Of a DNA stretch of 64,000 nucleotides, positions 7,709 through 64,000 are shown in pieces. The DNA lies in contig JAHJJF010000126.1 in NCBI GenBank assembly GCA_018823135.1, forward strand, positions 14,302 through 78,301. Direction: 5' to 3'. Numbering within the stretch: the first letter of the stretch is position 1; each line of letters opens with the position of its first letter. This DNA is from Pseudomonadota bacterium (GTDB lineage: Bacteria; Desulfobacterota; Desulfobulbia; Desulfobulbales; CALZHT01). A program made the position numbers and the translations under genes. The notes under the pieces were generated by a model. It was not told where the DNA came from and searched no databases. It worked only from the letters and a program-made list of their open reading frames with translations.

Positions 7709-7712
7709 AATA

Positions 7713-9365: not shown

Positions 9366-9433
9366 TCTTCCTTATAAGCTGATGTTTCTTGCTTGTGACA
9401 GCTCTAAATTTCTCCGGAGCTGGTATTTCCCTA

Positions 9434-39576: not shown

Positions 39577-39861
39577 ATGGGCATTATATTGATCATTCTG
39601 GGCCTGCCCTTTTTCCTTTCAGGCTCCATCGGACTCATACGCCTGCCGGATATCTACAACCGCCTGCATGCATTGACCAAAGCCGATAATGTCGGGCTCG
39701 GCTTTATACTTCTCGGTCTGACCCTGCAGGCAGATAACCTTACAAGCCTTTTCAAACTATTCTTTATCTGGATACTGGTACTCATCGCCAGTTCAGCCTC
39801 CTGCCACCTCATCGCCCGCAGCGCAATCCGCAAAGGAATCAAACCATGGTCCCGCCAATGA
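39577..39861 (+). CDS. mrpG: Mrp/Mnh antiporter subunit G
   Basis: GSIGLIRLPDIYNRLHALTKADNVG motif. An alternative GTG start lies at 39559. Confidence 0.7.
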   Translation: MGIILIILGLPFFLSGSIGLIRLPDIYNRLHALTKADNVGLGFILLGLTLQADNLTSLFKLFFIWILVLIASSASCHLIARSAIRKGIKPWSRQ

Positions 39862-40844: not shown

Positions 40845-40920
40845 TGCCCGGAAATATCATCTGCTGAAGACGACTCCCAAGACCGAATATGTTCAAAGTG
40901 AGACACTGAGAGAATAAGTC

Positions 40921-41250
40921 ATGAACACCAACCTCCTTTATGACCTTGCCGGAATACTTTTAGTCGCCTTCGGACTGTTCGCTTTGATAGTCTGCGCACA
41001 CCCTTTACGGAAAATTCTGGCGGTGAACATCATGTCAACAGGGGTTTTTCTTGTTTTCATTGCAACCGCATATGGAACCGGCATGGAAGCAGTCGATCCG
41101 GTTCCGCAGGCAATGGTCCTCACCGGCATCATCGTCTCATTGAGCATCACCGCCCTGGCGCTTATTCTGGCCTGTCGAATCCAGGAAACAACCAATCTTT
41201 TCCGGCTCCGGTCAGAGAAATCCGAGGATCAGAGGGCAATTGAATCATGA
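40921..41250 (+). CDS. mrpC: Mrp subunit C (NuoK-like)
   Basis: A 109 aa three-TM protein containing PVPQAMVLTGIIVSLSITALAL. Confidence 0.7.
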   Translation: MNTNLLYDLAGILLVAFGLFALIVCAHPLRKILAVNIMSTGVFLVFIATAYGTGMEAVDPVPQAMVLTGIIVSLSITALALILACRIQETTNLFRLRSEKSEDQRAIES

Positions 41251-47967: not shown

Positions 47968-50283
47968 ATGGATAACAAGCCTACCTCAAAATTAACCATT
48001 ATAATAATCATGCCGATTATCGTCCTGCTCGAAATCATGGGCGGCTGCATGTATTATTATCTGCAGCAAAACACCAATTCATTTATCAAATACCGGATAA
48101 CCAGAGAAGCGGAAAGACACCACAATGATATTTACTCACTGATCACCGATCACTATAACCAGCTCTTAATCCACGAACCGACTTTGGATGCTGCCAAAAT
48201 ACATCAGGCTGAAACGATCAGCGAACTTGAGATCTACTTCAGCCTCAATGGATTAACCGGGCAGATTTTTGAAAATAGCTCCCTGCTGTATTCCATTAAC
48301 GGGCCTGTTTCAAAGCCGGGTTATCCAGAAAATTATGCACAAACCTATTCGGAATATTATTCAGAGACACTATTTGCTCCGTGGAACTGGGAAATCAGCG
48401 TAATAGAGAATCCCGCCAATTATCAACGCCTCAGAGAGAGGATTACCCAGGGTCTGTACCTGCTTTTTGCCTCTTACACCATTCTGGCAATAGCCATTAT
48501 TGTTCTGCTCTGGCGCCTTGTGCTCATCCCCCTGAAACAGATCATTACTCCTTTACGCAACAACCAGCTTCCACAATATAAAGGCATAGATGAATTTGAA
48601 TTTTTAAGTAATACCATTGCCAGTGATATTCAAAAAAGACAGGAGGTCGAAGAACGGCTCATCCATCATCAAGTGAATCTCGAAAAAACCGTTTCCCAGC
48701 GAACCCAGGAGCTTGAAGAGGAAATCCTTTGCCGGGAAGAACTTCTCAAAACGCTCAAGAGCCGCGACGCACAACTTGCAGTCTCCCAGACCGTTGCCCG
48801 CCTTGGAAGCTGGGAATGGGACATTCTTTCCAACAAAGTGACATTCTCTGAAGAACTTTTCCGCCTCCTGGGTTTAAATTCCGATGACGACGTACCCACT
48901 TATGATGGCCTGCTTCAGAGGGTCCATGCCGATGACCGCGATGGTTTTGCTCAGGAAATAAAACGAGCTCTGCATGAAAAACAATCGTACCGGATGGATG
49001 TAAAGATGGTCCGAGCCGATGGCACCCAGTGGATAATGGAAGGCAGGGGTTCGGTGACCACCGACGACCAAGGGTCGCCGCTGATGCTCACCAGCACCGC
49101 TCAGGATATTACCGAGAGAAAACTCATGCGCGATGCCTTGCATAAAAAACAAAAATCCGAGGCAATCGGCACCCTGTCCGCAGGTATCGCCCATGACTTC
49201 AATAATGTCTTGAACATGATCTACGGATATCTTGAGGTCATTAATAATAATATCTCGAAAACCGATGCCAACTACGAAAACTTTCAAGGCATCACTTTGT
49301 CCTGCAATCGTGCCTCAGAACTGGTCAAACAAATCCTCATCTATTCAAGACATGATGAGCAGGACAAACGCCCGGTTCTCCTGCAGCCGATAATTGCCGA
49401 AACCCTGCAACTTCATGAAATATCAGTCCCCGACAATATTGAATTCCAGATTCACGTTGATTCGAGCTGCAGAGCGATTGACGCCAACGTCACCCAGATT
49501 CAACAAGTATGCCTGAACCTGCTGCAGAATGCCTGCCAGGCCATGGCAACAAACGGCGGGATCCTCCGAATCGAATTATCGGAAGTTGAAATCACCAATT
49601 CCTTGACCATTACAAATCCCAGATTAATACAGGGAGAAACATACGCAAGACTCACGGTGAGCGATACCGGCCAGGGGATGGACAATGACACCCTTGAAAA
49701 AATATTCAACCCCTACTTCACTACTAAAACTTTCAGCCTGGGAACAGGCCTGGGACTGGCCATAACCCATGGCATTATCGAAAATAATCATGGCGCAATC
49801 ATCGTTGAAAGCGCCCCGGGAAAAGGTTCGACTTTTCATGTTTTCCTGCCTCTTTCCAAGCAGCCGCTGGAACTGGAAAAACTCACTTCAGCAGCCAGGC
49901 CAATGGAAGCGTCGGACTCAAAGCACATCTTGTTCATAGACGATGAAAAGCTCAACACCCAGGTGTGGAGTATTGCCTTGACTCAGGCAGGGTTTCAGGT
50001 CACAACCGAAACTGATGCCAGAAATGCCTTGCGCCTGTTTAAGGCTGCACCGGACCATTTCGACATAGTAATAACCGATCAGAGAATGCCAGAACTTACC
50101 GGGATTGAACTTGCCGGAGAACTCATAAAAATCCGCGCAGATTTACCGATCATCCTTACTTCAGGATGGGACGATTCCATGGATTTCGAAAAAGTTAAAA
50201 ATGTGAAAGGGATTCGCAAGGTAATTTCCAAGCCGCATACCATGGATGTTCTTCTGCAGGCAATATCTTCCTGCCTGGAATAA
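47968..50283 (+). CDS. Hybrid sensor histidine kinase (TM-periplasmic-TM, PAS, HisKA, HATPase, receiver)
   Basis: H-box GIAHDFNNVL, G-boxes DTGQGM and GTGLGL, and a C-terminal receiver (ILFIDDE...ITDQRMP...TSGW). Confidence 0.85.
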   Translation: MDNKPTSKLTIIIIMPIIVLLEIMGGCMYYYLQQNTNSFIKYRITREAERHHNDIYSLITDHYNQLLIHEPTLDAAKIHQAETISELEIYFSLNGLTGQIFENSSLLYSINGPVSKPGYPENYAQTYSEYYSETLFAPWNWEISVIENPANYQRLRERITQGLYLLFASYTILAIAIIVLLWRLVLIPLKQIITPLRNNQLPQYKGIDEFEFLSNTIASDIQKRQEVEERLIHHQVNLEKTVSQRTQELEEEILCREELLKTLKSRDAQLAVSQTVARLGSWEWDILSNKVTFSEELFRLLGLNSDDDVPTYDGLLQRVHADDRDGFAQEIKRALHEKQSYRMDVKMVRADGTQWIMEGRGSVTTDDQGSPLMLTSTAQDITERKLMRDALHKKQKSEAIGTLSAGIAHDFNNVLNMIYGYLEVINNNISKTDANYENFQGITLSCNRASELVKQILIYSRHDEQDKRPVLLQPIIAETLQLHEISVPDNIEFQIHVDSSCRAIDANVTQIQQVCLNLLQNACQAMATNGGILRIELSEVEITNSLTITNPRLIQGETYARLTVSDTGQGMDNDTLEKIFNPYFTTKTFSLGTGLGLAITHGIIENNHGAIIVESAPGKGSTFHVFLPLSKQPLELEKLTSAARPMEASDSKHILFIDDEKLNTQVWSIALTQAGFQVTTETDARNALRLFKAAPDHFDIVITDQRMPELTGIELAGELIKIRADLPIILTSGWDDSMDFEKVKNVKGIRKVISKPHTMDVLLQAISSCLE

Positions 50284-50420: not shown

Positions 50421-51572
50421 TCATATCCTGTTCATCACAAAGCCGGCAAGTTCGTTTCCGGTTCGGTAATCAATATCCAGGAATGACATGCCTATATTGA
50501 ATTTATCTTCAGAAGAGGGTTCAACCCGCACAACCGTGCTGGCAAAAAGCTGCTGTTTTTCATCCTGAAGGGTGAACTGAGTCAGTAATCTCGTACCAGG
50601 GGAAATATTGTCGCTGCTTTCAACCATCATCCCCCCCCTGCTGATATCTCTGCATTGAGCAGCATGCATGATATCATCGTTGAATCGCTGCTCTTTAAGT
50701 TTGATATCTCCATGGCAGTCAACACGAACATAGCGTCGTTTGTCTCCGGAAAAAAGAACTATCCTGTTCTTTCCGGCGGCTTTGGCGCTGTACAGAGCGG
50801 AATCGGCAGCCTCGACCAGCCTTTGTGGTGCCGTTGTATCATAGGGATATGAAGCAAGCCCCCCGCTTATGGTAACCTTAAGAACCCGACCCTCATAGAC
50901 GAATCGCGCCTCATCAATCTCCTGCCTGATCCGCTCTCCGATCTCATGGGCATGCACTTTGGGGGTATCAGGGAGCAGAAGGAGTATTTCCTCGCCGCCA
51001 TAACGGACCGCAACATCCTCAATTCTCTTGCGCTTGCGGATGATTTCCGCAACACTTTTTAAGATCAGATCACCGCCCAGGTGTCCGTATGTGTCATTAA
51101 TCAGCTTGAAATTATCCAGGTCAAAGAACAACAGCGATAAATCACTGTGATGCCTTTCGGCGCGAGAAACTTCGCGGGTAAAAACCTCGTTAAATACCCG
51201 ACGATTCAATAAGCCGGTCAATTCATCCAGTTTTGAAAACTGGGCGGTTTTTTCATAGAGATGGATTTCTATTACCTTAGGATTCTTCAAGTACTTGTGA
51301 ACCGTACAGAAATAGTCGCAGATGGCGGTCCTTAAGCTTACCGAGCGGCCCAAATCCGATTTCATCTCAGCATAGTGAAGAATAATTTTCTGCCAGTAAT
51401 TTTCAGCCTCGGCGTTAGAGAGGTCAATGCTTGCCAGAATATTCAGTATAACTGAATAAACAGATTTTCCATGTTCGGCGACAAGTTGCCGCATCTCAAC
51501 CAGCAAACCGTCTTCATCATTTGAAAAGTCTTCAAGGGTCGCAAGTATGGTATCTCGTAAGGTCTGATTCAT
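50421..51572 (-). CDS. Diguanylate cyclase (GGDEF) with a C-terminal PilZ domain
   Basis: RYGGEEI active site with an RIED I-site 5 residues upstream. PilZ motifs RRYVRV and DISRGGM are present. The ATG at 51572 is preferred over the adjacent TTG. Confidence 0.8.
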   Translation of the reverse strand: MNQTLRDTILATLEDFSNDEDGLLVEMRQLVAEHGKSVYSVILNILASIDLSNAEAENYWQKIILHYAEMKSDLGRSVSLRTAICDYFCTVHKYLKNPKVIEIHLYEKTAQFSKLDELTGLLNRRVFNEVFTREVSRAERHHSDLSLLFFDLDNFKLINDTYGHLGGDLILKSVAEIIRKRKRIEDVAVRYGGEEILLLLPDTPKVHAHEIGERIRQEIDEARFVYEGRVLKVTISGGLASYPYDTTAPQRLVEAADSALYSAKAAGKNRIVLFSGDKRRYVRVDCHGDIKLKEQRFNDDIMHAAQCRDISRGGMMVESSDNISPGTRLLTQFTLQDEKQQLFASTVVRVEPSSEDKFNIGMSFLDIDYRTGNELAGFVMNRI

Positions 51573-51960
51573 CAAATTGGTTCTGAAAACTCTTTTTACT
51601 GAGTAAAGGAGGCTATATCGATTAGAAAAAAAACTAACCAGTAAATTCTCTTGCTTGGGGAACTGCTTGAAAACGCCGCCCGTTTAATCATTTTGCGAGC
51701 CAGTTAAGACCCGAAACGATATAGTATTTTTGCTTTATTTTATGCAAAAATCATTCCGCGCCGCATGATATAAATCTTTGAGAAACATATCAAACAGTTA
51801 GAGGCAGTCATGAAAATTGACACAGAAAAGATTATGGGAAGCCGTTCGGAACAACGGAAACTATTACATGATTCCGGAAAAACAAAACTACGAAACTCTA
51901 CAGGTTTATCAGGAATTATACATCACAGAAATTTGAACAGCACCAGCCAGTGCATCCTGT

Positions 51961-52440: not shown

Positions 52441-53046
52441 TCATCTTTTTCGTCGTCGGAAAGCCCCGATTCCGATAAGCCCGGTCCCCAAGAGCAGCAT
52501 TGTCGCCGGTTCAGGTATTGAAGCCATGCCGTGATTGGTAATCGATGCTTGGACCATCACCGTGTTACCACTGATAATTCCAAAAACATCAAGAAAATCG
52601 ACACTGATATCATTACCGAAAAGACTGAAATTATGAGGTAATGGCGGCCTGTCCCAGAGTATAGCCCCCGCGGTAAATGACCCGCTAAAGGCGACTGCCG
52701 CAGCGGAAGCTTCCGCTGTTGTATCAGCAGTTACGAGCGGCGAATCAAAAGCAAGTGTTGCCTCCACATCTGCAGATACAAATCCTGTTCCACCTAAAGT
52801 GATCCAGAAAAAATCAATAACTCTGGATTCTCCGTCATTCAGAGTAAAAATTTCCGCGTCCAAAGTGGATGCGAGAGCTGCGTTAAGTGTCAGTGGGTCT
52901 TTTGGATCAGATACGACAAATAGATTACTGAAAGAAAATGATGAATCCGGATCGTCCGCCACATCAAATGTTACTGGTGTTGCCGACGCGAGACTTGAGA
53001 ATAATAAGGCACAGGTGCCTATTGCAAATATGAGCAGTTTTTTCAT
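52441..53046 (-). CDS. PEP-CTERM sorting-domain secreted protein
   Basis: Signal peptide MKKLLIFAIGTCALLFSSLASA. The C-terminus is IPEPATMLLLGTGLIGIGAFRRRKR. AGGAGGG precedes the ATG at 53046. Confidence 0.85.
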   Translation of the reverse strand: MKKLLIFAIGTCALLFSSLASATPVTFDVADDPDSSFSFSNLFVVSDPKDPLTLNAALASTLDAEIFTLNDGESRVIDFFWITLGGTGFVSADVEATLAFDSPLVTADTTAEASAAAVAFSGSFTAGAILWDRPPLPHNFSLFGNDISVDFLDVFGIISGNTVMVQASITNHGMASIPEPATMLLLGTGLIGIGAFRRRKR

Positions 53047-53120
53047 GGCTCCCTCCTTTCCTTCAATAAAATTCAACGCTCCACTGCACTGAGACGGAAT
53101 AAATCTAACAAGCTGATAAT

Positions 53121-53343: not shown

Positions 53344-53907
53344 CTACTGCTTGGGATGACACCGCTTGCAATGCTGTATAGAGGTAACACTGAAGGCCTT
53401 ATGACCGTTATGGCAGTTGCCGCAGTATTTGCCCTTTTTCATTTCATCCATGGTGAGATGGCCTTTTTTTACGACATTTTTCCCCACCTTCATAAGGAAC
53501 ACCTTGGGATGGCACTCCACACAGCGCAATTGCTCACGCTCGGTGTGTTTTTTATGGCTGAAAACCGCAGACACCTTGCCATCAGGGGCATCCATGGAAA
53601 AATCATCGGGGAAATAGCCGTGCTGGACCATTTGCTCCATGGCCTTGGCTTTATCCTTTTTGGCGTCCTGCTTATTTTTCTCAGCATCGGCCATGGCTTT
53701 TTCCGCATCCTCAATGGCACGCTCTGCAGCAAGAACCGCTTTTTCCGCCTCGCTTCTCGCCTTTTCAGCCTCCTTCAATGCCTGAGCCGCATACTCGGCT
53801 GAGTCCGACCAGGATATGCGGGGTTGGATCAATACCGCTGTCGAGACAATTGCACAGATTATTGCGGCAGTTGTAATCAATTTCAATATATTATTGCCTG
53901 TTAGCAT
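53344..53907 (-). CDS. Membrane-anchored triheme c-type cytochrome (c7/c3-like) with a long Ala/Glu/Lys-rich helical spacer
   Basis: One N-terminal TM helix, a charged helical region at about aa 37-95, then CVECH, CGNCH and CKRCH. Confidence 0.8.
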   Translation of the reverse strand: MLTGNNILKLITTAAIICAIVSTAVLIQPRISWSDSAEYAAQALKEAEKARSEAEKAVLAAERAIEDAEKAMADAEKNKQDAKKDKAKAMEQMVQHGYFPDDFSMDAPDGKVSAVFSHKKHTEREQLRCVECHPKVFLMKVGKNVVKKGHLTMDEMKKGKYCGNCHNGHKAFSVTSIQHCKRCHPKQ

Positions 53908-53946
53908 AAATTTTCTCCCTTGGTATATAATACCATCAACTCCCGG

Positions 53947-54378
53947 TTATTTATGTTCAACCGTCACATTCGTATCTTCTTTCTCCGGCACGATTTTTCC
54001 TTGCTCGACAAGTTCATTGTAGCCCTTGACGCCGATATGACAGCGGGCGCATTGGGTGGTCGTTGAAAAAGAAATATCGCCATTATGGCATGTTCCGCAG
54101 TATCTTTCGTTACAAAGACTCTGCATATCGAAATCAGCGGTCTCCTGCATGGCCAGCGCTTCCATTTCAAAAGTCTCTTCATGGCACCAGTCGCAATGCA
54201 GACCAAGGTCTTCGGTATGGGCTTTATGGCTGAAAATAACCGCCTTGAGCGGTTTGGTATAAATTATATCACCGCCATGCTCAGGAGCTTCTTCTTCATC
54301 TTCAGCAAACACTGCTGCAGAATTAAGAAAAAACGCTGCTGCAACTGCCAGCAATAAAAGAAATAAAAGTTTTTTCAT
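53947..54378 (-). CDS. Periplasmic triheme c-type cytochrome (c7/c3-like)
   Basis: Signal peptide, then CDWCH, CGTCH and CARCH. The ATG at 54378 follows AAGGTGA. Confidence 0.8.
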   Translation of the reverse strand: MKKLLFLLLLAVAAAFFLNSAAVFAEDEEEAPEHGGDIIYTKPLKAVIFSHKAHTEDLGLHCDWCHEETFEMEALAMQETADFDMQSLCNERYCGTCHNGDISFSTTTQCARCHIGVKGYNELVEQGKIVPEKEDTNVTVEHK

Positions 54379-54478
54379 TTTCTTCACCTTTTATAAGAAT
54401 TCCTGTCCCGGATATTTTTAAATGCCCGTTGAAGCGCATGATCCCGGATCTTTTGCCTATTGATTATCAAATGTATTA

Positions 54479-55279
54479 TTATCTTTCTTCCGCCTGCCTT
54501 CTGAGTTCCCATGGCGAAGATCTGGTTGCCTTCATGTAAAAGACATTGGGCTTGGTACCAGCCTCCGGCCGCAGCACCCATACCTGTTTTTCTATCTGAT
54601 GGACCATTTTATAGATAACATTTTCCGGGTCGGAGACATCACCGAACATCCGGGTTCCGGTTGGACAGGCATTAGCACATGCGGTGAGCTTCTTGCCTTT
54701 TGAAAGACGTGTATCCCAACAGAAATTGCACTTATCAATGGCGTGTACTTCCTCATTGAAGTATCTGGCCTCGTACGGGCAGGCAAGAATACACATCTTG
54801 CAACCGATGCACTTCTTCCTATCCATCATTACAATACCGGTGGTTGGATCCTTGTAAGTAGCTTTGGTCGGACATCCACGGGTGCATGGCGCCTCATTAC
54901 AGTGATTGCAAAGGATCGGGATAAATTCCCGCTGCCTGCCGATGGCATCCGTAACCCTTTTCCGCAGAATTCTGGTCCGGTATCCATAGTCCGGAACATC
55001 ATTGGTTTCTTTGCAGGCGGTTACACATTGTTCACAGTCGATGCAAAGACCCTGTCGAATCACCATACTGTAATGCGGCCGGTAAGGGTATTGCTCTAAA
55101 AAGTCACTCGAGCTTGCAAACGCTTCATTGACATTGGAGACCAGCGACAGCAGTTTGCCGCCGGCAAAAACGCCGGTGACGGCAAAGCCGATTTTTAAAA
55201 ATGCCCTCCGTTCCAGACCGGTGACGGAGCGCAGGCCTTCATCCTTAATTGTATCAAGGTTTATTTTCGAAAACTTCAT
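54479..55279 (-). CDS. Tat-exported 4Fe-4S ferredoxin-type subunit (NrfC/PsrB/DsrO-like)
   Basis: ERRAFLKIGFAVTGVFAGG twin-arginine signal. Cys clusters are CIDCEQCVTAC, CNHCNEAPC, CIGCKMCILACP and CNFC. Confidence 0.85.
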   Translation of the reverse strand: MKFSKINLDTIKDEGLRSVTGLERRAFLKIGFAVTGVFAGGKLLSLVSNVNEAFASSSDFLEQYPYRPHYSMVIRQGLCIDCEQCVTACKETNDVPDYGYRTRILRKRVTDAIGRQREFIPILCNHCNEAPCTRGCPTKATYKDPTTGIVMMDRKKCIGCKMCILACPYEARYFNEEVHAIDKCNFCWDTRLSKGKKLTACANACPTGTRMFGDVSDPENVIYKMVHQIEKQVWVLRPEAGTKPNVFYMKATRSSPWELRRQAEER

Positions 55280-55317
55280 TATATCTATTCCTCCTTAATT
55301 GCTCAGTTCAGAAATCA

Positions 55318-56643
55318 TTAATCGTCACGATCTACCTTGCGAACCCGGTGATGACGCTTGAGGGATTCTTCTTCGGATTCACCTTCCTTCTTGTAGTGAA
55401 TTCCACCACAACCAGGGCAGACATACGCGCCTGGAGGGACGATTTCATGTTTCTGGAACTGATGGCCGTTCAGCATCCTCTCACCTAATAAATAAAAAAC
55501 ACCGGCGAATGAAAGGCCCGCTACCACTACCGAAATTTCATGAAAAGAAGGGGTGTATTCAAGAAGGGAGCTGTACTCATCAACACCAAGTGAATGAAAG
55601 ACCGGAACGATCTGACCGGCAAGCACCAGGTCATAACGCATGAAAAATATGCCGATCATCATAAATGACGATGCAATAAACATCTTCCTGAGGTCCCTGC
55701 CCTCGGACTGAATCAACAGAATAAAAGGAATCACCATGCCCAGCAGTACTTCAGCACCCCAGAAATTAAGGGCATACCTGCCGAGAACAAATGCTTTAAT
55801 GGCTACATATTTTTCAGGGGCGACAACACCGCTGATAATTTTCCATATGGTAAAAAACATGATAATCGCAATCAGCATCGTAGTGAGCTGACACACCGCC
55901 TTGATGCTTCTCTCCATGCGACGGCTCATGATATGCCGGTCGATTCTCCAGGAAATGCAGGTAAACAGAATGATTGCGGCACCGCCTGACATCATTGCCG
56001 AAACAATGAAATAAATCGGCATATAAGGACCGTACCAGAACTCACGACCGTGCAGCATGCCGAACACCGCTCCGAGATTGCTATGGGCCGCAACCCCGAA
56101 GATGACGCCGAACAAACCGAAAATTCTAGACCAGGCGTGATTCTGATCAAGGAGGAAGAAATATTCAATCCCCAGGGCGATCAGATACAGGGTATAGAGA
56201 GTTCCCATCCACCACATATTCGATGTGAGGTTTGGCGAAAACGCATTATAAATCGGCATGCGGAAAGGATTTTCCACATCAAAAAAGATAATAATAAAGC
56301 CGCCGAGCATGAAGGTAATGGAAAGAAATACCGCTCTTTTTGCTATGGGCATATAAGGTTCATAGCCAAAGACATGGCCGATGGATGAAACAAGACAGAG
56401 TCCGGTGGATGTTACAACGCAGAAAATATAGGCAGAAATCAACAGACCCCAGGGGATCTGGCGGGTGACGCCGTAAACATGGCGATACCCGGTAAAAGTA
56501 CCATGCAGGCCAACGGCCAGGCCGTAGAAAACCAGGAGTCCCAACAGGCCAAGAATACCCAGTAAAACCTTATTGGATCGAAAAAGGGCCCCCACCCCGG
56601 TGTACCCCCATCTCTCCGCTGTATCTTTGTGTATTTGAATCAT
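55318..56643 (-). CDS. NrfD/PsrC-family membrane quinone-interacting subunit with a charged C-terminal tail carrying one CPGC motif
   Basis: A polytopic membrane protein. The tail is ...YVCPGCGGIHYKKEGESEEESLKRHHRVRKVDRDD. The ATG at 56643 follows AGAAGGAGAG. Confidence 0.8.
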   Translation of the reverse strand: MIQIHKDTAERWGYTGVGALFRSNKVLLGILGLLGLLVFYGLAVGLHGTFTGYRHVYGVTRQIPWGLLISAYIFCVVTSTGLCLVSSIGHVFGYEPYMPIAKRAVFLSITFMLGGFIIIFFDVENPFRMPIYNAFSPNLTSNMWWMGTLYTLYLIALGIEYFFLLDQNHAWSRIFGLFGVIFGVAAHSNLGAVFGMLHGREFWYGPYMPIYFIVSAMMSGGAAIILFTCISWRIDRHIMSRRMERSIKAVCQLTTMLIAIIMFFTIWKIISGVVAPEKYVAIKAFVLGRYALNFWGAEVLLGMVIPFILLIQSEGRDLRKMFIASSFMMIGIFFMRYDLVLAGQIVPVFHSLGVDEYSSLLEYTPSFHEISVVVAGLSFAGVFYLLGERMLNGHQFQKHEIVPPGAYVCPGCGGIHYKKEGESEEESLKRHHRVRKVDRDD

Positions 56644-56873
56644 TCGTGTTCTCTCCTTCTCTAGTTCTTTTCTGTGATCGGCAAAACCAAAGCCTCGCAC
56701 CCTGCCGGAAAAGAAAATCTCTTTTCTTGTTCCGCCCGGGAAAAAATTTAGTCCCGTCAGAAAATCCGTTCCTTGCGCTCATGCGAGACCGACAAAGATT
56801 AAATAAAAGTGACGCTAATGTTACTTGTTAAGATATACCCCTCCTTTCTTTATTTATTCTTAAGACCAAATAA

Positions 56874-57620
56874 TCAACTATTAAATATTTTTTTAAAGAT
56901 ATCCAAAGGAACCGGAATAAGCGTGGACGTCTTATCCGACGTACCTATTTCACGGATGGTCTGCAGATAACGAAGCTGCAGGGCGGCTGGATGCTGGTCA
57001 ATGAGACTTGCTGCCTCGCAGAGCTTGGCAGCTGCCTGATATTCCCCGTCGGCATTGATGATGGCGGCACGCCGTTCCCTTTCGGCCTCGGCCTGTTTTG
57101 CCATGGCACGCTGCATGTTTTCAGGCAGATCAATTTCCTTGACTTCGACCTTATGGATTTTGACTCCCCAGGGTTCGGTTTCCTGATCAAGGATTACCTG
57201 CATTTTTTTATTGATTGCGTCACGTTCGGATAAAAGATGATCAAGGTCATCCTGACCGCAGATACTTCTGAGTGTCGTCTGGGCCAGTTGCGATGTGGCC
57301 ATCTGATAGTCCTCAACATCGATAAGCGACCTGACAGCATCCACCACCTTGAAATAGACGACAGCACTGACCTTTATCGAGACATTGTCCTTGGTAATGA
57401 CATCCTGACCAGGAACCTCCATGGTTATAGTTCGCAAATCGACCTTGGGCATTCTCTCAACAAGGGGAATAAGAAATACCAGGCCCGGTCCTTTGGTGCC
57501 GATAACCTTACCGAGGCGGAATAAAATGCCTTCCTGGAATTGACTGACCATCCTCACCGAAAGAAAAAAAAGAATTACGCATAACGGAAATAGAAAAATC
57601 ACCCAATACAGCGTCGTCAT
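56874..57620 (-). CDS. SPFH/band-7 (stomatin-like) protein
   Basis: FQEGILFRLGK...DLRTITMEVPGQDVITKDNV...REAAIINAEGE-like region. The ATG at 57620 follows GGGGGAG. Confidence 0.85.
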   Translation of the reverse strand: MTTLYWVIFLFPLCVILFFLSVRMVSQFQEGILFRLGKVIGTKGPGLVFLIPLVERMPKVDLRTITMEVPGQDVITKDNVSIKVSAVVYFKVVDAVRSLIDVEDYQMATSQLAQTTLRSICGQDDLDHLLSERDAINKKMQVILDQETEPWGVKIHKVEVKEIDLPENMQRAMAKQAEAERERRAAIINADGEYQAAAKLCEAASLIDQHPAALQLRYLQTIREIGTSDKTSTLIPVPLDIFKKIFNS

Positions 57621-57719
57621 ATGCTCCCCCAAAAAATGCCCATGCAAGAGTTTCTTTACAATTACTGAATACAACATCCCAAAACACTGAAATATCCCGA
57701 AAATCTTTTTACTGATTTA

Positions 57720-57757
57720 TACCACAGTGTGGTAGTGAATATGCCACATTGTGGTAT
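57720..57757. promoter_or_regulatory. Two palindromic operator-like sites 22 bp apart centre to centre
   Basis: TACCACAgTGTGGTA (57720-57734, perfect 7-1-7) and CCACAtTGTGG (57744-57754). They lie in the divergent SPFH/GNAT intergenic region. Confidence 0.5.
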
Positions 57758-57931
57758 AAATCTGCAAGGTTTTTCTTTATAAGAATGATCTATTTTGATA
57801 CACTTTTCTTATTACTATTTTCGGCATGAACGCTTACGGGTTGCAAACAATATGGCGGGATCAGTTGCCCGCATATTTTCCGATCCATGCGGATTGAAGC
57901 CCAGTGATTATCTTACTCGCAGGAGGTGCGC

Positions 57932-58528
57932 GTGGACTACCTTAAAGCTATTGAATACTCATCAAATCAAAAGGATAAAATTTCAAATATTGAGACAGTG
58001 ATCAGTGCCTTGTGGGAAAACCATAATACTGTCATCCGGACCGGATACGGGGAAGAATTCGATGTCAGGTTTTCTCAAAGAGAAAATTATTTTGATGTGG
58101 TGCTCAGCATAAAAAACAATGACATTGGCTTTATCACCTTGAAACAGAAAAACAGCGGCAGATATTCAATTGTCAACGACTCGTCAATCAATCCGCATCC
58201 GGCAATAACCCAGACCGCGGGCCATGGGCTTGCAGTAAAAGCAGAGCATCGAAAAAGAGGCATAGGCGCAGCCCTCCTGAGTCTCGGGGTCGGAATTGCC
58301 CAGAAAGATTATAAGGCCCGGAGCACTGATGAGCCTTTCGAAGTAATTGCAACCGATGTCACCGGCCTGGGATACGGCTGCTACCTGCATTTCGGGTTTA
58401 AAATTCTCCCTGGGATGAAAGAAACCACCGCACATTACCGAGATGCAAACCGTTTGCCGGAATTGAAAATTCTGCGGAGAAAGGCAGGCCTTCTCCAGCG
58501 CTTGAAAAAAAGAATGCATCGGGATTGA
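57932..58528 (+). CDS. GNAT-family N-acetyltransferase
   Basis: HRKRGIGAALL acetyl-CoA motif. The GTG at 57932 lies 5 nt after AGGAGG. Confidence 0.65.
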   Translation: MDYLKAIEYSSNQKDKISNIETVISALWENHNTVIRTGYGEEFDVRFSQRENYFDVVLSIKNNDIGFITLKQKNSGRYSIVNDSSINPHPAITQTAGHGLAVKAEHRKRGIGAALLSLGVGIAQKDYKARSTDEPFEVIATDVTGLGYGCYLHFGFKILPGMKETTAHYRDANRLPELKILRRKAGLLQRLKKRMHRD

Positions 58529-58703: not shown

Positions 58704-60149
58704 TTACGGCTCGTCATGACAAACACTGCAATCCTGGGAGATTGAATTTCCTTCAGGATTCAGGTGCTCTTCATCATGGCAACGGAAACAACCATAGCCC
58801 TCTTCGGCACGCTGGTGGCCGAGATGTTTCCCGTAAGTTCCCCATAAAACGTTCATCGCCGGCCAGACATTGCCTAAATATCCAGCAAGGAGATATTCCC
58901 CGGCCCGCTTGATATCAGCAGCATATTGCTTGGCCTTGGCAGGATCTCTTTTCTTCTGCAATTCCACCAGGTTTCTGACCATTATTTCCTGGGCCGCTTC
59001 ACGGCTTTCATATTCCTTGGTCAGAACCGCCAAACCATCTTCACGAATACCCGGAACATCAGGATTTATTTTTCTGCTGAGCAGTCCGGCATCAATTACC
59101 TCTTCAGGCATCTGATAGATGTGCGTCGGTCGATTATGGCAGTCAATACAATCCATGATCCGCCATTCATGGGTCTCATCCTCCGCAACATCGATGTCTT
59201 CCTTGACAAATTCATCATGGCTGCCGTCCGGGCGAGTAACCTTGACTCTGGCAATCTGAGTCCGTTTTGCATCGGCTGCAAGGTAACTCACCTGGACATC
59301 TTTACTGACATGCCAGTGAATACCTTCAAATGCATCAGTCTGAGGATTACGTCCACCGATATGCAAGGCGATTTCCGTGACTTCAGGTTGAGCCTGCTCT
59401 TCATTGGAAAAATGCTGGAATATTTTAATCTTTTTCCCATGAAACTTGTCCGGCCAATGGCATTCCTCACAGGTATCCCGAGCCGGGCGAAGATGTTCCA
59501 CCGGTGCCGGGATCGGGCGACTGTAACTACCCGCCATAACCGCCGCGACCTGGCGAAGACCTGAAATTTTCGCGCGAACGAACCAGTCGGCGCCCGGACC
59601 GATATGACACTCAACGCACTTTACTTTGACGTGCGGAGAGCGCTGATAAACTGCATATTCCGGCTCCATGACCGTGTGGCAGACCCTGCCGCAGAAAAAT
59701 GACGAATCGGTAAAATGATATCCCTCATAAGCGATTACCACCAGGATAGAAAGATTGATTACCGTAAGCGCGATAAATCCAACAAGCCATCTTCTATGCT
59801 TGTGATCACTGAGGTTAATATGAAGATGATCCCGTGCAATCCCGTATTTGCGCCAACGGCGGCGTCTTACAAATGCCGCGATGGGGATCAACAAGAGACC
59901 GGTTACCATCCCGCCCGGCAGCAACAGATACGTTGCCATGGCGGCATAGGGATTATGGATAAGCCCAAGGACATCCAGAGCCAGCCCGACGAGCATCAGG
60001 GTGATACTGACTGTAGTGATGGCAACTCCCATCAGGCCCAACGGGGAACGCCACATGCCGCGGATTATATAATGCCAGCCGCTTTTATAATTTTCCCTGT
60101 TTTCCGTATCCTGATCAGATAAATTTTGTTTGTTTTCGTCAACACTCAT
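58704..60149 (-). CDS. Integral-membrane hexaheme cytochrome c, NapC/NirT-related (three predicted N-terminal TM helices)
   Basis: Haem motifs are CGRVCH (CX3CH), CVECH, CEECH, CIDCH, CFRCH and CSVCH. FCGRVCHTVMEPEY matches the NapC/NirT first-haem context. Confidence 0.8.
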   Translation of the reverse strand: MSVDENKQNLSDQDTENRENYKSGWHYIIRGMWRSPLGLMGVAITTVSITLMLVGLALDVLGLIHNPYAAMATYLLLPGGMVTGLLLIPIAAFVRRRRWRKYGIARDHLHINLSDHKHRRWLVGFIALTVINLSILVVIAYEGYHFTDSSFFCGRVCHTVMEPEYAVYQRSPHVKVKCVECHIGPGADWFVRAKISGLRQVAAVMAGSYSRPIPAPVEHLRPARDTCEECHWPDKFHGKKIKIFQHFSNEEQAQPEVTEIALHIGGRNPQTDAFEGIHWHVSKDVQVSYLAADAKRTQIARVKVTRPDGSHDEFVKEDIDVAEDETHEWRIMDCIDCHNRPTHIYQMPEEVIDAGLLSRKINPDVPGIREDGLAVLTKEYESREAAQEIMVRNLVELQKKRDPAKAKQYAADIKRAGEYLLAGYLGNVWPAMNVLWGTYGKHLGHQRAEEGYGCFRCHDEEHLNPEGNSISQDCSVCHDEP

Positions 60150-60537
60150 ACTTCTATTACACTCCTTTCTTGGCGTTAAAAATTACACAACTTAACTCAA
60201 CACAAATATCCGCCCTCTTCAGCAGGAAAAGGAACGAAATCACAAAAACCGCATACAGGCAAATATCGCCAGGAGAGAAAAACGAAAGAATATCCGTGCA
60301 TATAAAATATCCACGGAAACCCGTCCAAACCTTTCAACTGTTTATAAATCCTGTCTGTCGTGAAAAAATTCTCCGAAACAAGGAGATATTGATCAAACTG
60401 CCTTAAATGAAAATTGTCGGCATCGTATTTATGCCCTGTGGTAAAAAAACACGATGAGGTCGCGTATTTCTCTTATTACTACATGAAATTACTGAAGGCG
60501 ATATTTCAGCATCCGACTTTTTGCGATGCCATCAAAA

Positions 60538-60963
60538 TTAATCGATTGATGAGGCGGCGACTTCTTTGGCTTCTATCATTGCCTTAATATAAACTCCGCA
60601 ACTTTCACAAAGTTTCAGTTCCTTGGCACATGCGGTGTTAGCTCTTTCCCAGCAGGGAATTGATCTATCCATAAAAGCCGAACATTTATCGCGTATTTCA
60701 GGATGACAATTCTTTATTTCCCAACAGGGTGTAAGTTCCAGCAGCATTTTAATCCCGGGAATACTGATTCCCTTCTCATGAATCAAGGCCCGGATACAAC
60801 GTACCCACTCAATGTCATCATTGGAAAAATAACGCTTATTGCCCCTTCTTGATGGTTTAATAAGCCCTTCCTGCTCATAAATCCGCAGAGTTCTCGGATG
60901 AACCGAGAGAAGTTTCGATGCAACGCTTATGGGATATATCGGATCACTGTTTTCAACAGCCAT
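60538..60963 (-). CDS. MerR-family transcriptional regulator with a Cys/Trp-rich C-terminal domain
   Basis: The N-terminus ISVASKLLSVHPRTLRIYEQEGLIKPSRRGNKRYF is a MerR HTH. The C-terminus is CWEIKNC...C...CWERANTAC...CESC, with 7 Cys and 2 CW pairs in about 48 aa. Confidence 0.75.
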   Translation of the reverse strand: MAVENSDPIYPISVASKLLSVHPRTLRIYEQEGLIKPSRRGNKRYFSNDDIEWVRCIRALIHEKGISIPGIKMLLELTPCWEIKNCHPEIRDKCSAFMDRSIPCWERANTACAKELKLCESCGVYIKAMIEAKEVAASSID

Positions 60964-61362
60964 TCTCTTCTCCTCGTTTCAGAAATGAAGACCGATGTCT
61001 CTTTCCGAAGGAACTGAGCTTTAATCAACAATAAAAAGGGATACGAATAAACCAAAAAAAAAAGAGACTTGTCAACAACAAAGGAAAGAAAACAATAGAA
61101 AAACATGATCCAGGTTTGGCATTTCCTTATCAGCCATCCATGTTTTCCCCAATCATATCAGCCATTGAGCCGGGATTCTCCAGCATATTCCTTCCTGCGA
61201 ATTCTCCAATGCAATCTACCATAAATATCAGGAGCCGGGGAGATTACAACCTTTTTTTAATTATCGATCAAAAATACAGGTTAAGACAGCTACCTGCAAC
61301 GGATTTGACAAAATTAACGGGTCAACTGCACAATAAATTATTTATAACATCGTCCGTCATTT

Positions 61363-62829
61363 TCATTCGGAACAGATCTGCAAAGCTTTACCCGCCGGCT
61401 TATTCTCTGCAAGAATAATATGGCATGACTCGCAATCAATGGTTATCACCTGACCGGATGCTGATTGCAATGATCCGTCGTGACATCGGAAACAACCGGC
61501 ATTAGCACCCTTGTGGCCGATGAAATTCTTATAGCTTCCCCAGGAAATCTTCATTTCAGGGAAAACATTTTCAGCATAGGCCTTTTGAACCCCCCTTACA
61601 GACTTGGCAAGTATTGTTGCATCGCTTTCGACTATTTCAGGATAGTTGTTTTTATACCAGCTCATTAACTGGATGGCGATCATGTTACTTGCTTTCTCCG
61701 AAGTTTCATACTCCTGGGTGATTATCCTAAGCCCCTCCCGCTTGATAAACGGCAAATCCGTTGATATTTCCCCGCTTAAAAGCTTTTTATCCAGAGCCTC
61801 GTCCGGTGCAAGGAAAATATGGGTCGGCCGATTATGACAGTCCATGCAATCCATGATCCGGGTGCTGCCAGAGGCGTAAGAATACTCATCCGGAGAATTT
61901 TCCTCTGCACACACGGGATCTCTGGAGTAAATCGTTTCCATCCCCTTTTTATCCACAAGGGTTACTTTATAAATATCTTCACGCGCCTGATCGGCATGAC
62001 TGTACTTGATGGTATTTTCCTGGGACACGTGCCAGTGAATGCCATGGGCCTTCTGGCCGCTGTACCCGCCGGAACCGACCTTCATGAGCAGAGCGGTCTG
62101 AACATGGGTATTTTTCTCATCGGGCAAAAATTTATCTTTAACATAAAGCTTATCGCCGTGAATCATTTCAGGCCGATGACACTCTTCACAGGTCTCCCTA
62201 AAGGGACGGAGACCGCCGATGGGGGTCTCTATGGGGCGGCTGTAAGTTTTCATGGCAACCGCGGCAAGCTGTTTCACCCCGGATATCTTAGAACGGGCAA
62301 ACCATTGCGCCGCTTCTCCCAGATGACATTCAACACAGGGCACGCGGGAATGGGGTGAATTCTGATAAGTAATGAATTCAGGCCTCATGACTTCGTGACA
62401 GAATTGGGCGCAGAAACTTACTGACTCTGTGTAATGAAAGGCTGAATAGGAAAACATCACAACAACTAAAAAGGTCAGATTGATAATGACCGTGGTCAAT
62501 AAAATGAGCCGCCGAACTCTGGTGAAACGTCCGGGTTTGGTAAATTGTTCTTTAAGATACTCAAAGGCATAAACACCGATTTCCTCGTCATTCTTACAAA
62601 ATAACACTCCAAAAAGAACCAGTACCAGACCGAGCACAAACACCGGTCCCATGACCATATAGGTGAGAAAGCCGAAATAGGGATTTTTGATAAGCCCTTG
62701 CATATCGAGAGCTGCGGAGATCAACAGAAAAGGAAACATCATCACCGACATGATGGCGCCGATTACCGCAACTTTACTGCGGGCAATTCCATCGAATAAA
62801 ATTCTCAGTATATCTCCGATTTTTGACAC
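61363..62829 (-). CDS. Integral-membrane hexaheme cytochrome c, paralog of 58704-60149
   Basis: Haem motifs are CAQFCH (CX3CH), CVECH, CEECH, CMDCH, CFRCH and CESCH. Blocks shared with the paralog include RIMDCxDCHNRPTHI and GIHWHVS. The GTG start follows AGGGA. Confidence 0.8.
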   Translation of the reverse strand: MSKIGDILRILFDGIARSKVAVIGAIMSVMMFPFLLISAALDMQGLIKNPYFGFLTYMVMGPVFVLGLVLVLFGVLFCKNDEEIGVYAFEYLKEQFTKPGRFTRVRRLILLTTVIINLTFLVVVMFSYSAFHYTESVSFCAQFCHEVMRPEFITYQNSPHSRVPCVECHLGEAAQWFARSKISGVKQLAAVAMKTYSRPIETPIGGLRPFRETCEECHRPEMIHGDKLYVKDKFLPDEKNTHVQTALLMKVGSGGYSGQKAHGIHWHVSQENTIKYSHADQAREDIYKVTLVDKKGMETIYSRDPVCAEENSPDEYSYASGSTRIMDCMDCHNRPTHIFLAPDEALDKKLLSGEISTDLPFIKREGLRIITQEYETSEKASNMIAIQLMSWYKNNYPEIVESDATILAKSVRGVQKAYAENVFPEMKISWGSYKNFIGHKGANAGCFRCHDGSLQSASGQVITIDCESCHIILAENKPAGKALQICSE

Positions 62830-62866: not shown

Positions 62867-64000
62867 TCAGACTTCAAAATTTTCCGTGACGATAGCCGGA
62901 CAGGCATTGCCTTCTTCCCCTGTCGCCTTTTTTTCACGCATCCTTTTCTGCGTGCATTCAAAGATTATTTCCATTTCCTCCCTATCGAGCACTTCCTCTT
63001 TTAAGAGAATCTCCGCCAGATGCTCGAGAAAATCCTTTTCTCTTGAAAGAATGCTTTTGGCCTTCTCATAGCATGAATCAATCATACTTTTGATCTTGCC
63101 ATCAATTCTCCTGGCGGTTTCCTCACTCATGGCGGCCATCATGCTGCCGCCGGAAAGGAATCCCTGGTCTCCCCTGGCCAGGGAAAGCGGGCCGATCACA
63201 TCATCCATGCCCCACTTACAGATCATATTGGTCGCAATCTCCATGGCCTGCTGAAAATCATCTTCAGCGCCGGTGGTTTTCTGGTTAAGCGCCACTTCTT
63301 CTGCCGCGCGCCCTCCCATAAAAATAGTTATGCGATTCAAGAGATATTCCTTGGAATACACCTGACGGTCATGGAGCGGCATCTGCTGGGTATGACCCAT
63401 GGCTCTGCCTCTGGGAATAATGGTGATTTTATGCAACGGGTCAGTCTCGGGGAGAAACCGTGCAAGAATCGCGTGCCCTGCTTCATGAATGGCAAGAGTC
63501 CTGCGGTCCTTTTCACCGATGACGAAATTCTTCCTTTCAACACCCATGAGCATGCGGTCCTTGGCTGCCTCAAAGTCGCTCATATCAATTGCGTCCTTTT
63601 CAGCACGACCCGCAATCAGCGCGGCTTCGTTCACCAGGCTTGCCAGTTCAGCTCCGGTAAAGCCGGGAGTGCTTCTTGCCAGATGCTCCAGGTCAAGGTT
63701 TTCCACCATCCGGATGCGCCGGGCATGTACTTCAATAATCTGCAGACGCCCCTTTACATCCGGAGGCAACACTGTGATCTGCCGGTCAAAACGCCTCGGT
63801 CTCAAGAGCGCCGTATCAAGAATATCCGGCCTGTTGGTCGCCGCAAGAACAATGACCGTTTCATCGGTGCCGAAGCCGTCCATTTCAACCAGCAATGCAT
63901 TCAGGGTCTGACCGCGCTCATCCTGGCCTCCTCCTGCTGCGCCGCCGCCGCCACGATGGCCGCCCACCGCATCAATCTCGTCAATAAATATGATACAGGG
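62867..64000 (-). CDS. ftsH: ATP-dependent zinc metalloprotease FtsH, C-terminal part; the gene continues beyond the right edge
   Basis: LLRPRRFDRQI (second region of homology) and the HEAGHAI zinc site. The frame stays open upstream of the ORF-track Met through IDEIDAVGG to position 64000. Confidence 0.9.
   Translation of the reverse strand, partial: PCIIFIDEIDAVGGHRGGGGAAGGGQDERGQTLNALLVEMDGFGTDETVIVLAATNRPDILDTALLRPRRFDRQITVLPPDVKGRLQIIEVHARRIRMVENLDLEHLARSTPGFTGAELASLVNEAALIAGRAEKDAIDMSDFEAAKDRMLMGVERKNFVIGEKDRRTLAIHEAGHAILARFLPETDPLHKITIIPRGRAMGHTQQMPLHDRQVYSKEYLLNRITIFMGGRAAEEVALNQKTTGAEDDFQQAMEIATNMICKWGMDDVIGPLSLARGDQGFLSGGSMMAAMSEETARRIDGKIKSMIDSCYEKAKSILSREKDFLEHLAEILLKEEVLDREEMEIIFECTQKRMREKKATGEEGNACPAIVTENFEV

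Follow-up and report, generated by a model that had tools for sequence, protein, structure and literature searches.

Two ImcH-family hexahaem cytochromes beside a conserved MerR-type regulator with a cysteine- and tryptophan-rich tail: a candidate redox switch in Desulfobulbales

The locus described here lies on contig JAHJJF010000126.1 of the Desulfobulbales assembly GCA_018823135.1, within a stretch of 64,000 nucleotides that was analysed as a whole and is referred to below as the window; L-numbers (e.g. L004) denote related loci that were fetched for comparison. It comprises the genes of two membrane-bound hexahaem cytochromes, named A and B, and between them the gene of a MerR-type regulator, with the 3' part of ftsH on the side of cytochrome B and an operon for an NrfD-type module and two small cytochromes on the side of cytochrome A (Table 1). 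An earlier sequence-only reading of this DNA had already located the three open reading frames (ORFs) on the minus strand with the regulator in the middle, and this arrangement was confirmed.

Table 1. Features of the locus and of the remaining window (positions in the 64,000-nt window)
Feature	Position	Strand	Remark
Cytochrome A, ImcH-family hexahaem inner-membrane cytochrome, subfamily A	58704-60149	minus	481 aa
Intergenic region, regulator gene to cytochrome A	60150-60537	minus	
MerR-superfamily regulator	60538-60963	minus	141 aa
HspR-like winged helix-turn-helix (HTH) of the regulator	60733-60936	minus	residues 10-77
Cys-rich two-CW-like tail of the regulator	60589-60729	minus	residues 79-125
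Intergenic region 5' of the regulator gene	60964-61362	minus	399 bp
Cytochrome B, ImcH-family hexahaem inner-membrane cytochrome, subfamily B	61363-62829	minus	488 aa, GTG start
ftsH (AAA protease), 3' part	62867-63967	minus	runs toward the window end
Candidate operator region	57709-57767		24-nt inverted repeat with two TACCACAnTGTGGTA copies
GNAT ORF	57926-58528	plus	Acetyltransf_1 weak (22.2 bits, cut-off 20.7); part of the unit uncertain
SPFH/Band_7-NrfD-NrfC-c7 operon	53344-57677	minus	
SPFH/Band_7	56874-57677	minus	
NrfD-type membrane subunit	55318-56700	minus	NrfD 90.8 bits
NrfC-type 4Fe-4S poly-ferredoxin	54479-55279	minus	Tat-like leader; Fer4_11 87.1 bits
Trihaem c7-type cytochrome, soluble	53947-54387	minus	
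Trihaem c7-type cytochrome, membrane-anchored	53344-53907	minus	
DsrMKJOP cluster	5302-10471	minus	NCBIfam equivalog cut-offs passed by DsrM, DsrK, DsrO and DsrP
DsrP	5302-6471	minus	
DsrO	6483-7400	minus	
DsrK	7713-9365	minus	
DsrM	9434-10471	minus	

Both cytochromes are built to the same plan, as the sequence-only reading had stated. Three N-terminal hydrophobic segments (Kyte-Doolittle windows at residues 35-67, 69-95 and 119-144 of A and at 18-47, 51-82 and 105-132 of B) precede one CX3CH motif, which stands directly after transmembrane (TM) helix 3 (CGRVCH at 153 in A, CAQFCH at 140 in B), and five CXXCH motifs (at 178, 227, 334, 454 and 474 in A and at 165, 214, 328, 446 and 466 in B). 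Pairwise alignment of the two proteins gave 36% identity over 463 residues (E = 7e-108) and contained the blocks RIMDCxDCHNRPTHI, GIHWHVS and ISGxxQxAAV. Helices were placed at residues 36-61, 67-102 and 116-146 of cytochrome A by an AlphaFold model with moderate confidence; the AlphaFold2 model, computed from a 30-sequence alignment, had a mean predicted local distance difference test (pLDDT) score of 56.5 with values below 50 in the haem regions, and was too poor for fold searches. The proposed relatedness to NapC/NirT was borne out by PF03264 scores of 28.3 and 30.0 bits for the two cytochromes, above the gathering score of 24.1. The sole relative in the PDB found by sequence was NrfH (2j7a), a weak match aligned over residues 133-232, in which the CXXCHxM haem-1 motif of NrfH is laid onto the CX3CHxVM of the cytochrome. 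Membership of the tetrahaem NrfH/NapC/CymA class was rejected on the basis of the three TM segments, the six haem motifs and TIGR03153 scores of 42.4 and 49.7 bits, compared with a cut-off of 134.2; the NrfH and TorC equivalog scores of both cytochromes were far below the cut-offs.

The ImcH family has been defined by three TM helices, an atypical CX3CH by the membrane domain and five to nine further CX2CH motifs (PMC6295460), and the CXXXCH first motif of ImcH was also noted by Levar et al. (2014). With five CXXCH motifs, cytochromes A and B are inside this range and have one motif fewer than the Geobacter type. As comparator for Geobacter-type ImcH we used the protein of L087, an environmental Geobacter-type ortholog and not the PCA protein itself, which was recovered from metagenome contigs with the 20-mer of a published imcH primer as query. 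It has 507 aa, the published length, with one CX3CH and six CXXCH motifs, and the published residue numbers are matched by its E127, H137, K173, Q179 and Y188. According to the paper that characterised ImcH, H137 is the histidine of the CX3CH motif and Q179 the distal Gln, while E127, K173 and Y188 are conserved. Counted from the CX3CH histidine, the Lys, Gln and Tyr of both cytochromes are at +36, +42 and +51, the same offsets as in published ImcH, and the position at -10, which corresponds to E127, is occupied by Glu in cytochrome B and by Asp in cytochrome A. Identity to the L087 protein amounts to 39.7% over 453 aa for A (E = 1e-124) and 36.6% over 478 aa for B (E = 3.5e-115), values that fall in the range of 31.5-49% published for Geobacter-group ImcH against other members of the family (PMC6295460); in the alignment, the C-terminal segment with haem 7 of ImcH is absent from A and B. 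Judged by motifs, key residues and full-length homology, both cytochromes can be securely assigned to the ImcH family, as the sequence-only reading had surmised. Placement in a well-characterised cytochrome family was an outcome that this reading had counted against its own proposal, and the novelty of the cytochrome half is lowered in this respect.

The same reading regarded A and B as a duplicated pair. Mean identity is 70% within A and 66% within B, compared with 38% between A and B and 38-41% between either of them and Geobacter-type ImcH. The pattern of one CX3CH and five CXXCH motifs had no exception among 47 B-type and 20 full-length A-type orthologs from related loci, with CX3CH as the first motif in 67 of 67 full-length orthologs of either type. 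Given that A, B and Geobacter ImcH are nearly equidistant from each other and the 1+5 pattern is conserved, A and B are best described as old, conserved and distinct hexahaem subfamilies of ImcH, not as the products of a recent duplication. A-type proteins end with ...CHDEP right behind haem 6, and most B-type proteins have a short acidic C-terminal tail (...ILAEDE...LRG). At least 7,949 sequences belong to the family of cytochrome A at E <= 1e-5, the named ones mostly from Desulfobulbaceae, Desulfurivibrionaceae and Thiovibrio. Cytochrome B of the window ends with ...QICSE (nt 61363-61380) and its closest ortholog, in L004, with ...RICSE, while most other B-type proteins end with ...LRG. MAFFT aligned this end with CSDCH, the seventh haem motif of Geobacter-type ImcH, either by chance or perhaps because it is what remains of a lost haem site.

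The SPFH-NrfCD-c7 operon lies roughly 1 kb past cytochrome A, and we read it as a putative second quinol:cytochrome c module together with likely periplasmic partners; its NrfD and NrfC proteins passed no equivalog cut-off. Since Geobacter ImcH reduces the c7-type cytochrome PpcA, as described in its characterisation paper, the c7-type cytochromes of the window are plausible partners of ImcH-A and ImcH-B. It is conceivable, though somewhat unlikely, that the two cytochromes do not serve extracellular exit of electrons but periplasmic sulfur or nitrogen metabolism, or reverse quinone reduction in the course of sulfide oxidation or electron uptake, in which case the regulator would answer to sulfur or nitrogen species and not to redox potential. 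A Desulfobulbales host with DsrMKJOP would fit this, the Dsr genes claimed by the sequence-only reading being present with DsrM, DsrK, DsrO and DsrP above their cut-offs, as would relatives that use nitrate or Fe(III) to oxidise sulfide (PMC12545173), the occurrence of regulator homologs in the sulfur disproportionators Thermosulfurimonas and Dissulfuribacter, and the lack in A and B of the seventh haem, which is solvent-exposed in the published ImcH model. However, the residues of the quinol site are conserved as in ImcH, c7-type cytochromes as the class that accepts electrons from Geobacter ImcH are encoded nearby, no terminal reductase gene is adjacent, and ImcH homologs were reported only in Fe(III) reducers in a survey that covered few genomes (PMC6295460).

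The assignment of the regulator to the MerR family was corroborated by PF13411 (MerR_1; 67.5 bits, cut-off 21.6) and PF00376 (41 bits, cut-off 28.2). Its AlphaFold2 model is confident for residues 10-77; after residue 77 it has only short helices with confidence below 50, and the long coiled coil of MerR-type proteins is not displayed. The closest NCBIfam models of the HTH are those of HspR, of which NF047375 scored 74.6 bits, short of its cut-off of 105, over the HTH only. A search with the HAIR operator pattern CTTGAGT-N7-ACTCAAG revealed no HAIR-like site near the locus; the two matches with three mismatches in the 64 kb are both located elsewhere and correspond to the chance level. Because of the score under the HspR cut-off, the match confined to the HTH and the lack of a HAIR operator near the locus, an identity of the regulator with HspR was rejected. 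SoxR was rejected as well, given the absence of CX2CXCX5C and a TIGR01950 score of 19.3 bits versus 116.9. Literature searches for MerR with ImcH, HspR with Geobacter and "two-CW domain" yielded nothing that describes the regulator, and no paper was found for the last phrase.

A pattern scan of one genome per species, covering 185,579 species, identified 256 confirmed stretches that encode a relative of the regulator. Its culturable carriers include Hydrosulfovibrio ferrireducens CB1MN, Desulfurivibrio sp. D14AmB and Thiovibrio sp. JS02, the last with a complete genome (CM130715.1). Synteny was assessed in the best 80 of the 256 stretches with flanks of 10 kb; 45 loci had full flanks of 5 kb or more on each side. 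The regulator has an ImcH-like gene no more than 3 kb away in 58 of the 80 loci, and an ImcH-like or NrfD-type gene is nearby in 68. When only the loci with full flanks are considered, 42 of 45 have an ImcH-like or NrfD gene beside the regulator (36 ImcH-like, 18 NrfD). The constant feature of the regulator loci is a membrane quinol-interacting cytochrome module, around which the gene order varies. The majority type, ftsH-cytB-merR, is found in most Desulfurivibrionaceae including H. ferrireducens; ftsH-cytB-merR-cytA occurs in the window, L004 and L015, and ftsH-cytB-cytA-(TPR)-merR in Thiovibrio JS02, L030, L035 and L040. In L051, L057, L066 and similar loci, merR-cytA stands behind a DUF2339-like membrane protein, with a tetrahaem-Fer4-NrfD operon transcribed divergently from it. 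Clusters of cytc-Fer4-NrfD genes that are orthologous to the NrfD operon of the window lie beside the regulator in Desulfuromonadales, where cluster and merR are divergent and merR has a B-like gene next to it, and in Desulfobulbus, where the order is NrfD-merR...Fer4-cytc without ImcH. A membrane-anchored tetrahaem cytochrome followed by merR occurs in Thermosulfurimonas and Thermodesulfatator. With respect to the cytochrome-MerR-cytochrome synteny that the sequence-only reading wished to see surveyed, the association of the regulator with respiratory genes recurs, while the exact bracketing order is a minority arrangement; and what had been called an unusual regulatory unit is common within its clade, recurring across Desulfobulbales, Desulfuromonadales and Thermodesulfobacteria.

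Several observations were made beside the regulator in these loci. The tetrahaem cytochromes next to it in L051 and L072 were considered as NapC/NirT proteins and rejected, their Pfam class being cytochrome c3/c7-like. Desulfuromonas loci encode two tandem regulator paralogs (L002, 8001-9188; L044, L048, L052, L064 and L050, upstream of the regulator), and in the same loci the NrfD operon is separated from the regulator gene by a conserved small membrane ORF and conserved TGTTGCA/TGCAACA blocks; a sigma-54 activator is adjacent in L002. The DUF2339-like protein of the merR-cytA type (L029, 481-2262; L051, 6141-7916; L057, 7964-9766; L066, 7674-9557) is about 600 aa long, with 13-17 TM segments, an N-terminal coiled coil and a weak DUF2339 match, and is encoded between the palindrome described below and the regulator gene. 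A multisubunit cation/proton antiporter cluster of the Mrp/Mbh type is present in the window (39846-45999, plus strand) and at L001 (10413-16414), and one of this kind directly adjoins the regulator in Thiovibrio sp. JS02.

In 40 of the 80 loci, ftsH and the regulator gene are no more than 5 kb apart, usually as ftsH-cytB-merR on one strand. The stop codon of ftsH is located 37 nt upstream of the cytB start in the window with no terminator between, and co-transcription of ftsH and cytB is therefore likely. The FtsH-cytB order is kept without the regulator in L092, where FtsH-cytB-cytA stays linked. Genes for FtsH and SPFH/Band_7 proteins also recur by ImcH-like or other membrane cytochrome genes in the absence of the regulator (examples beside those of the window are L090, 2073-2819; L091, 2079-2825; and L092, 2364-4250), which suggests a quality-control link to multihaem membrane proteins. 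SPFH/Band_7 proteins are partners of FtsH. From this neighbourhood the regulator could be taken for an HspR-type stress repressor of ftsH and other membrane-proteostasis genes that responds to heat, oxidative or thiol stress, with the cytochromes as mere neighbours through the tight ImcH-B/ftsH linkage. We consider this unlikely. The ftsH linkage, the recurrent SPFH/Band_7 genes and the HspR-like HTH, which is also found in 37 of 142 proteins bearing the tail domain, agree with such a role, but the HspR score remains under the cut-off and concerns the HTH only, the HAIR-like site is missing near the locus, and adjacency to ImcH-like or NrfD genes exceeds adjacency to FtsH. Furthermore, Desulfuromonadales, MerR-cytA and Thermodesulfobacteria loci without FtsH nearby keep the regulator by NrfD-type or cytochrome genes.

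The C-terminal part of the regulator had been described as carrying seven Cys and two CW dipeptides in its last 48 residues; the counts are correct, but the cysteines extend from 80 to 122 of 141 and thus occupy the last 62 residues. They are located at 80, 86, 94, 104, 112, 119 and 122 with the spacing C-x5-C-x7-C-x9-C-x7-C-x6-C-x2-C, in addition to C56, and the CW dipeptides are at 80-81 and 104-105. All eight Cys are invariant in 120 of 120 regulator homologs (64-100% identity) and each Trp in 119. When compared with NCBIfam, the tail of the window protein alone weakly matched NF045718, "two-CW domain", and nothing else (E = 0.018; 15.4 bits, curated cut-off 35 bits). The tails of 18 of 18 homologs likewise matched only this model, the best with E = 2.7e-4 and all of them under the cut-off. 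A profile of the tail retrieved 442 clusters at E <= 1e-3 from 1.84 billion cluster representatives, of which 142 were scanned for domain content; strong NF045718 matches, down to E = 8e-27, were present in seven of these. The resemblance to the two-CW domain noted in the sequence-only reading consequently holds as a remote relationship.

Across the 142 divergent representatives, C80, W81, C86, C94, C104, W105, C119 and C122 are conserved to at least 90%. A MerR HTH was detected in 41 of them; the remaining fusions comprised three Response_reg, two MCPsignal, two HD_5, two HATPase_c and one GGDEF domain. Most other representatives had no signalling or HTH family, and those inspected were small stand-alone or single-TM proteins. 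An XRE-type HTH is fused to the same two-CW-like module at L055 (9763-10212, plus strand). The tail is best classified as a compact, sub-threshold relative of the uncharacterised two-CW domain and as part of a portable input-domain family. Since the module is also fused to kinases, chemoreceptors and enzymes of cyclic di-GMP (c-di-GMP) turnover, it is probably a sensor. That it is instead a structural zinc-binding or dimerisation module which replaces the MerR coiled coil, leaving a protein with no sensor and with constitutive or otherwise controlled DNA binding, seems quite improbable to us: the model without a long dimerisation helix after the winged HTH, a C-x5-C ... C-x2-C spacing compatible with zinc knuckles and a weak GATA zinc-finger match (E = 0.061) would be in line with it, whereas the occurrence of the module alone, membrane-anchored or fused to receiver, histidine-kinase, MCP, HD-GYP-type and GGDEF domains is the distribution of an input domain, and two invariant Trp by Cys together with six near-invariant Cys in very divergent proteins suggest a cofactor pocket.

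A dyad search of the intergenic DNA across all loci resulted in one outstanding element, the palindrome TACCACAnTGTGGTA, of which 12 exact copies are present in 1.29 Mb in comparison to about 0.005 estimated by chance. The window has an exact copy (57720-57734) and one with a single mismatch (57742-57756), both inside the inverted repeat between the GNAT ORF and the SPFH-NrfD operon, and each copy abuts an outward-facing TATAAAT -10-like box. We take the region as the candidate operator of a divergent promoter. Respiratory promoters of at least 11 related loci also carry the palindrome, whose positions are always promoter regions of NrfD-type operons, of the DUF2339-MerR-cytA operon or of cytA/cytB-type genes. 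It lies between divergent NrfD-type and DUF2339-merR-cytA operons in L029, L051, L054, L056, L057, L059, L061, L065, L066 and L068, in which the NrfD subfamily differs from that of the window. A version with two mismatches, TGCCACCTTGTGGTA, is positioned between TTGACC and TATACA, 145 bp upstream of the A-type gene of L090 (5856-5870; same region in L091). This A-type gene follows a cluster of Band_7, a 668-aa multihaem protein and cytochrome b, and has no regulator within 6 kb. A degenerate copy that overlaps TGCTATAAT is located upstream of cytB in L020 and L026. At L055, which has palindromes at 9775 and 11186, TACCACATCGTGGTA fills the 19-bp spacer between TTGACA and TACTCT before the XRE/two-CW gene. 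The palindrome appears to mark a respiratory regulon with the co-located regulator as the obvious candidate binder, and TACCACAnTGTGGTA can be assigned as the operator of the regulator only tentatively. Because the recognition helix of the regulator is invariant although the palindrome is missing from most regulator loci, another factor may bind it.

Other intergenic signals were of local extent. The ftsH-cytB intergenic alignment contains conserved blocks among close Desulfurivibrionaceae, with a palindrome-like element in L020 and L026 only, and that of Desulfuromonadales has conserved TGTTGCA/TGCAACA blocks and no palindrome. The 399-bp region 5' of the regulator gene contains no conserved operator, RNA family or credible ORF, and Rfam and tRNA scans detected nothing in the region. 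On the 3' side of the regulator gene, terminator-like hairpins are present at 60465-60449 and 60386-60370, and a TACCACA half-site followed by CATAAAT is found near 60440 in the region that separates the gene from cytochrome A. A near-perfect inverted repeat at 60293-60317, TCCGTGCATAT-AAA-ATATCCACGGA with 11-nt arms, is located about 150 bp upstream of cytochrome A; it was rejected as an operator of the family, being absent from all related loci examined.

Taken together, we interpret the locus as encoding two ImcH-family quinol oxidoreductases along with a dedicated redox-sensing regulator of the modules by which electrons leave the quinone pool, and assign to this interpretation as a whole a probability of roughly 0.55. 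ImcH-A and ImcH-B would act as inner-membrane menaquinol:periplasmic-cytochrome oxidoreductases with three-helix anchors. By analogy to NrfH and to the published ImcH model, quinol would be oxidised at the haem-1 site formed by CX3CH, the distal Gln and the nearby Lys and Tyr, and five bis-His haems would then conduct the electrons to periplasmic acceptors, for which the trihaem c7-type cytochromes encoded 5 kb away are likely candidates. The regulator would bind DNA with its HspR-like MerR-type winged helix, the usual effector region being replaced by the 45-residue Cys/CW module. We infer that this module, with its six or seven invariant Cys, contains either a redox-active cofactor, with an Fe-S cluster as the likeliest, or reactive thiols, and that it reports the redox or electron-acceptor state of the cell. 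As possible targets, the regulator would tune, by activation or repression, the exit modules of the quinone pool, namely ImcH-A, ImcH-B together with ftsH, and the NrfCD-c7 operon, probably via TACCACAnTGTGGTA operators overlapping the -10 region of promoters. The sequence-only reading had gone further and envisaged potential-dependent switching between the two paralogs. In the specific form of a sensor that uses a cofactor to follow the redox state of the quinone pool or of the acceptor and chooses among ImcH-A, ImcH-B and NrfCD-c7, we hold the proposal for the MerR/two-CW protein to be a long shot.

A number of findings weigh against this interpretation. All three sampled cytA-type genes on long contigs are without a regulator within 6 kb, so that the cytochromes do not generally depend on it. 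The palindrome is absent from most regulator loci, including the FtsH-cytB-MerR type, Desulfuromonadales and the closest relatives L004 and L015, and in the window it lies 2.8 kb from the regulator gene, in neither of the intergenic regions that flank it. Dyad and k-mer searches detected no conserved site 5' of the regulator gene, where the signal is cytB coding sequence, and comparison of related loci detected none upstream of cytochrome A. A PDB sequence search with the tail profile returned no solved relative, and the AlphaFold model of the tail, with pLDDT below 50, is uninformative on cofactor geometry. The ImcH comparator L087 has no match to the other imcH primers. Finally, imcH of Geobacter is monocistronic and expressed even during growth on fumarate (Levar et al. 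2014).

Should this specific form of the proposal, with a sensor that chooses among the three modules, be true, the regulator would be a genetic switch by which Desulfobulbales, Desulfuromonadales and Thermodesulfobacteria adjust extracellular or periplasmic respiration to potential, and the two-CW fold would be a new domain for redox input that bacterial signalling proteins reuse widely. Earlier work concluded that bacteria must somehow sense potential, for which the locus offers a concrete and conserved candidate sensor. The presence of the regulator beside quinol modules in most of the 80 sampled sulfur- and metal-cycling species makes it a good candidate for a redox switch. The interesting part is the regulator half, a conserved MerR/HspR-like factor with a reusable Cys/Trp input domain, and the locus would give a first functional context to the two-CW domain that is also found in kinases, chemoreceptors and c-di-GMP enzymes. 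On the side of the cytochromes, the ImcH family is extended by two hexahaem subfamilies in Dsr-containing Desulfobulbales. Desulfurivibrio relatives of the culturable carriers couple sulfide oxidation to iron-oxide respiration; the study describing this assigned the inner-membrane step to a CbcL homolog and mentions neither ImcH nor the regulator (PMC12545173).

In the remaining window, DsrJ is presumably encoded in the gap at 7400-7713 of the DsrMKJOP cluster. A 775-aa ORF (2448-4775, minus strand) combines a pyridoxal-phosphate-dependent (PALP, cysteine-synthase-like) domain with a complete cysteinyl-tRNA synthetase. Just beyond the cytochrome operon, a PEP-CTERM protein (52441-53076, minus strand), a GGDEF-PilZ fusion (50421-51575, minus strand) and a PAS hybrid histidine kinase (47968-50283, plus strand) are encoded.

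Among known systems, ImcH of Geobacter sulfurreducens (GSU3259) is the closest to the cytochromes. This multihaem protein of the inner membrane oxidises menaquinol, sends respiratory electrons outward from the cell membrane and is required for high-potential extracellular acceptors. It shares with A and B the three N-terminal TM helices, the NapC/NirT-like region, the CX3CH first haem, the distal Gln and the Lys and Tyr at identical offsets, collinear identity of 37-40% across the haem domain and c7-type periplasmic cytochromes, which are here encoded nearby. In contrast to the seven haems of Geobacter ImcH, A and B have six; they are found side by side, whereas Desulfuromonadia genomes typically have one copy (PMC11492766); their genes are linked to ftsH and the regulator, while Geobacter imcH stands alone; and their host is a Dsr-containing member of Desulfobulbales, in which their function is predicted from sequence. 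NrfH, NapC and CymA resemble A and B in the architecture of the quinol site, with a TM helix and a first haem motif that align with NrfH (2j7a) and a Lys equivalent to K82 of NrfH, but possess one TM helix and four haems instead of three and six, and NrfH has CXXCHxM with a Met ligand where A and B have CX3CH with a distal Gln. The neighbouring operon is similar to Geobacter Cbc4 (CbcSTU) in its NrfD-type subunit, NrfC-type poly-ferredoxin and c-type cytochromes; the latter, however, are of the trihaem c7 type and not the membrane-anchored tetrahaem CbcS.

The regulator, for its part, is most similar to HspR models in its winged HTH, but its C-terminus is a Cys-rich two-CW-like module outside the HspR model, and its genomic context is respiratory in contrast to the dnaK/clpB context of HspR. 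With SoxR, the [2Fe-2S] redox sensor of the MerR family, it has in common, as a concept only, a MerR-type DNA-binding domain with a C-terminal Cys cluster that may permit redox sensing; the tail has seven Cys in comparison to four, is an unrelated domain, and a long dimerisation helix is not predicted for the regulator. The two-CW domain NF045718 contains two CW dipeptides and conserved Cys in the same order as the tail of the regulator, which with about 45 residues is a compact counterpart of the 80-position model.

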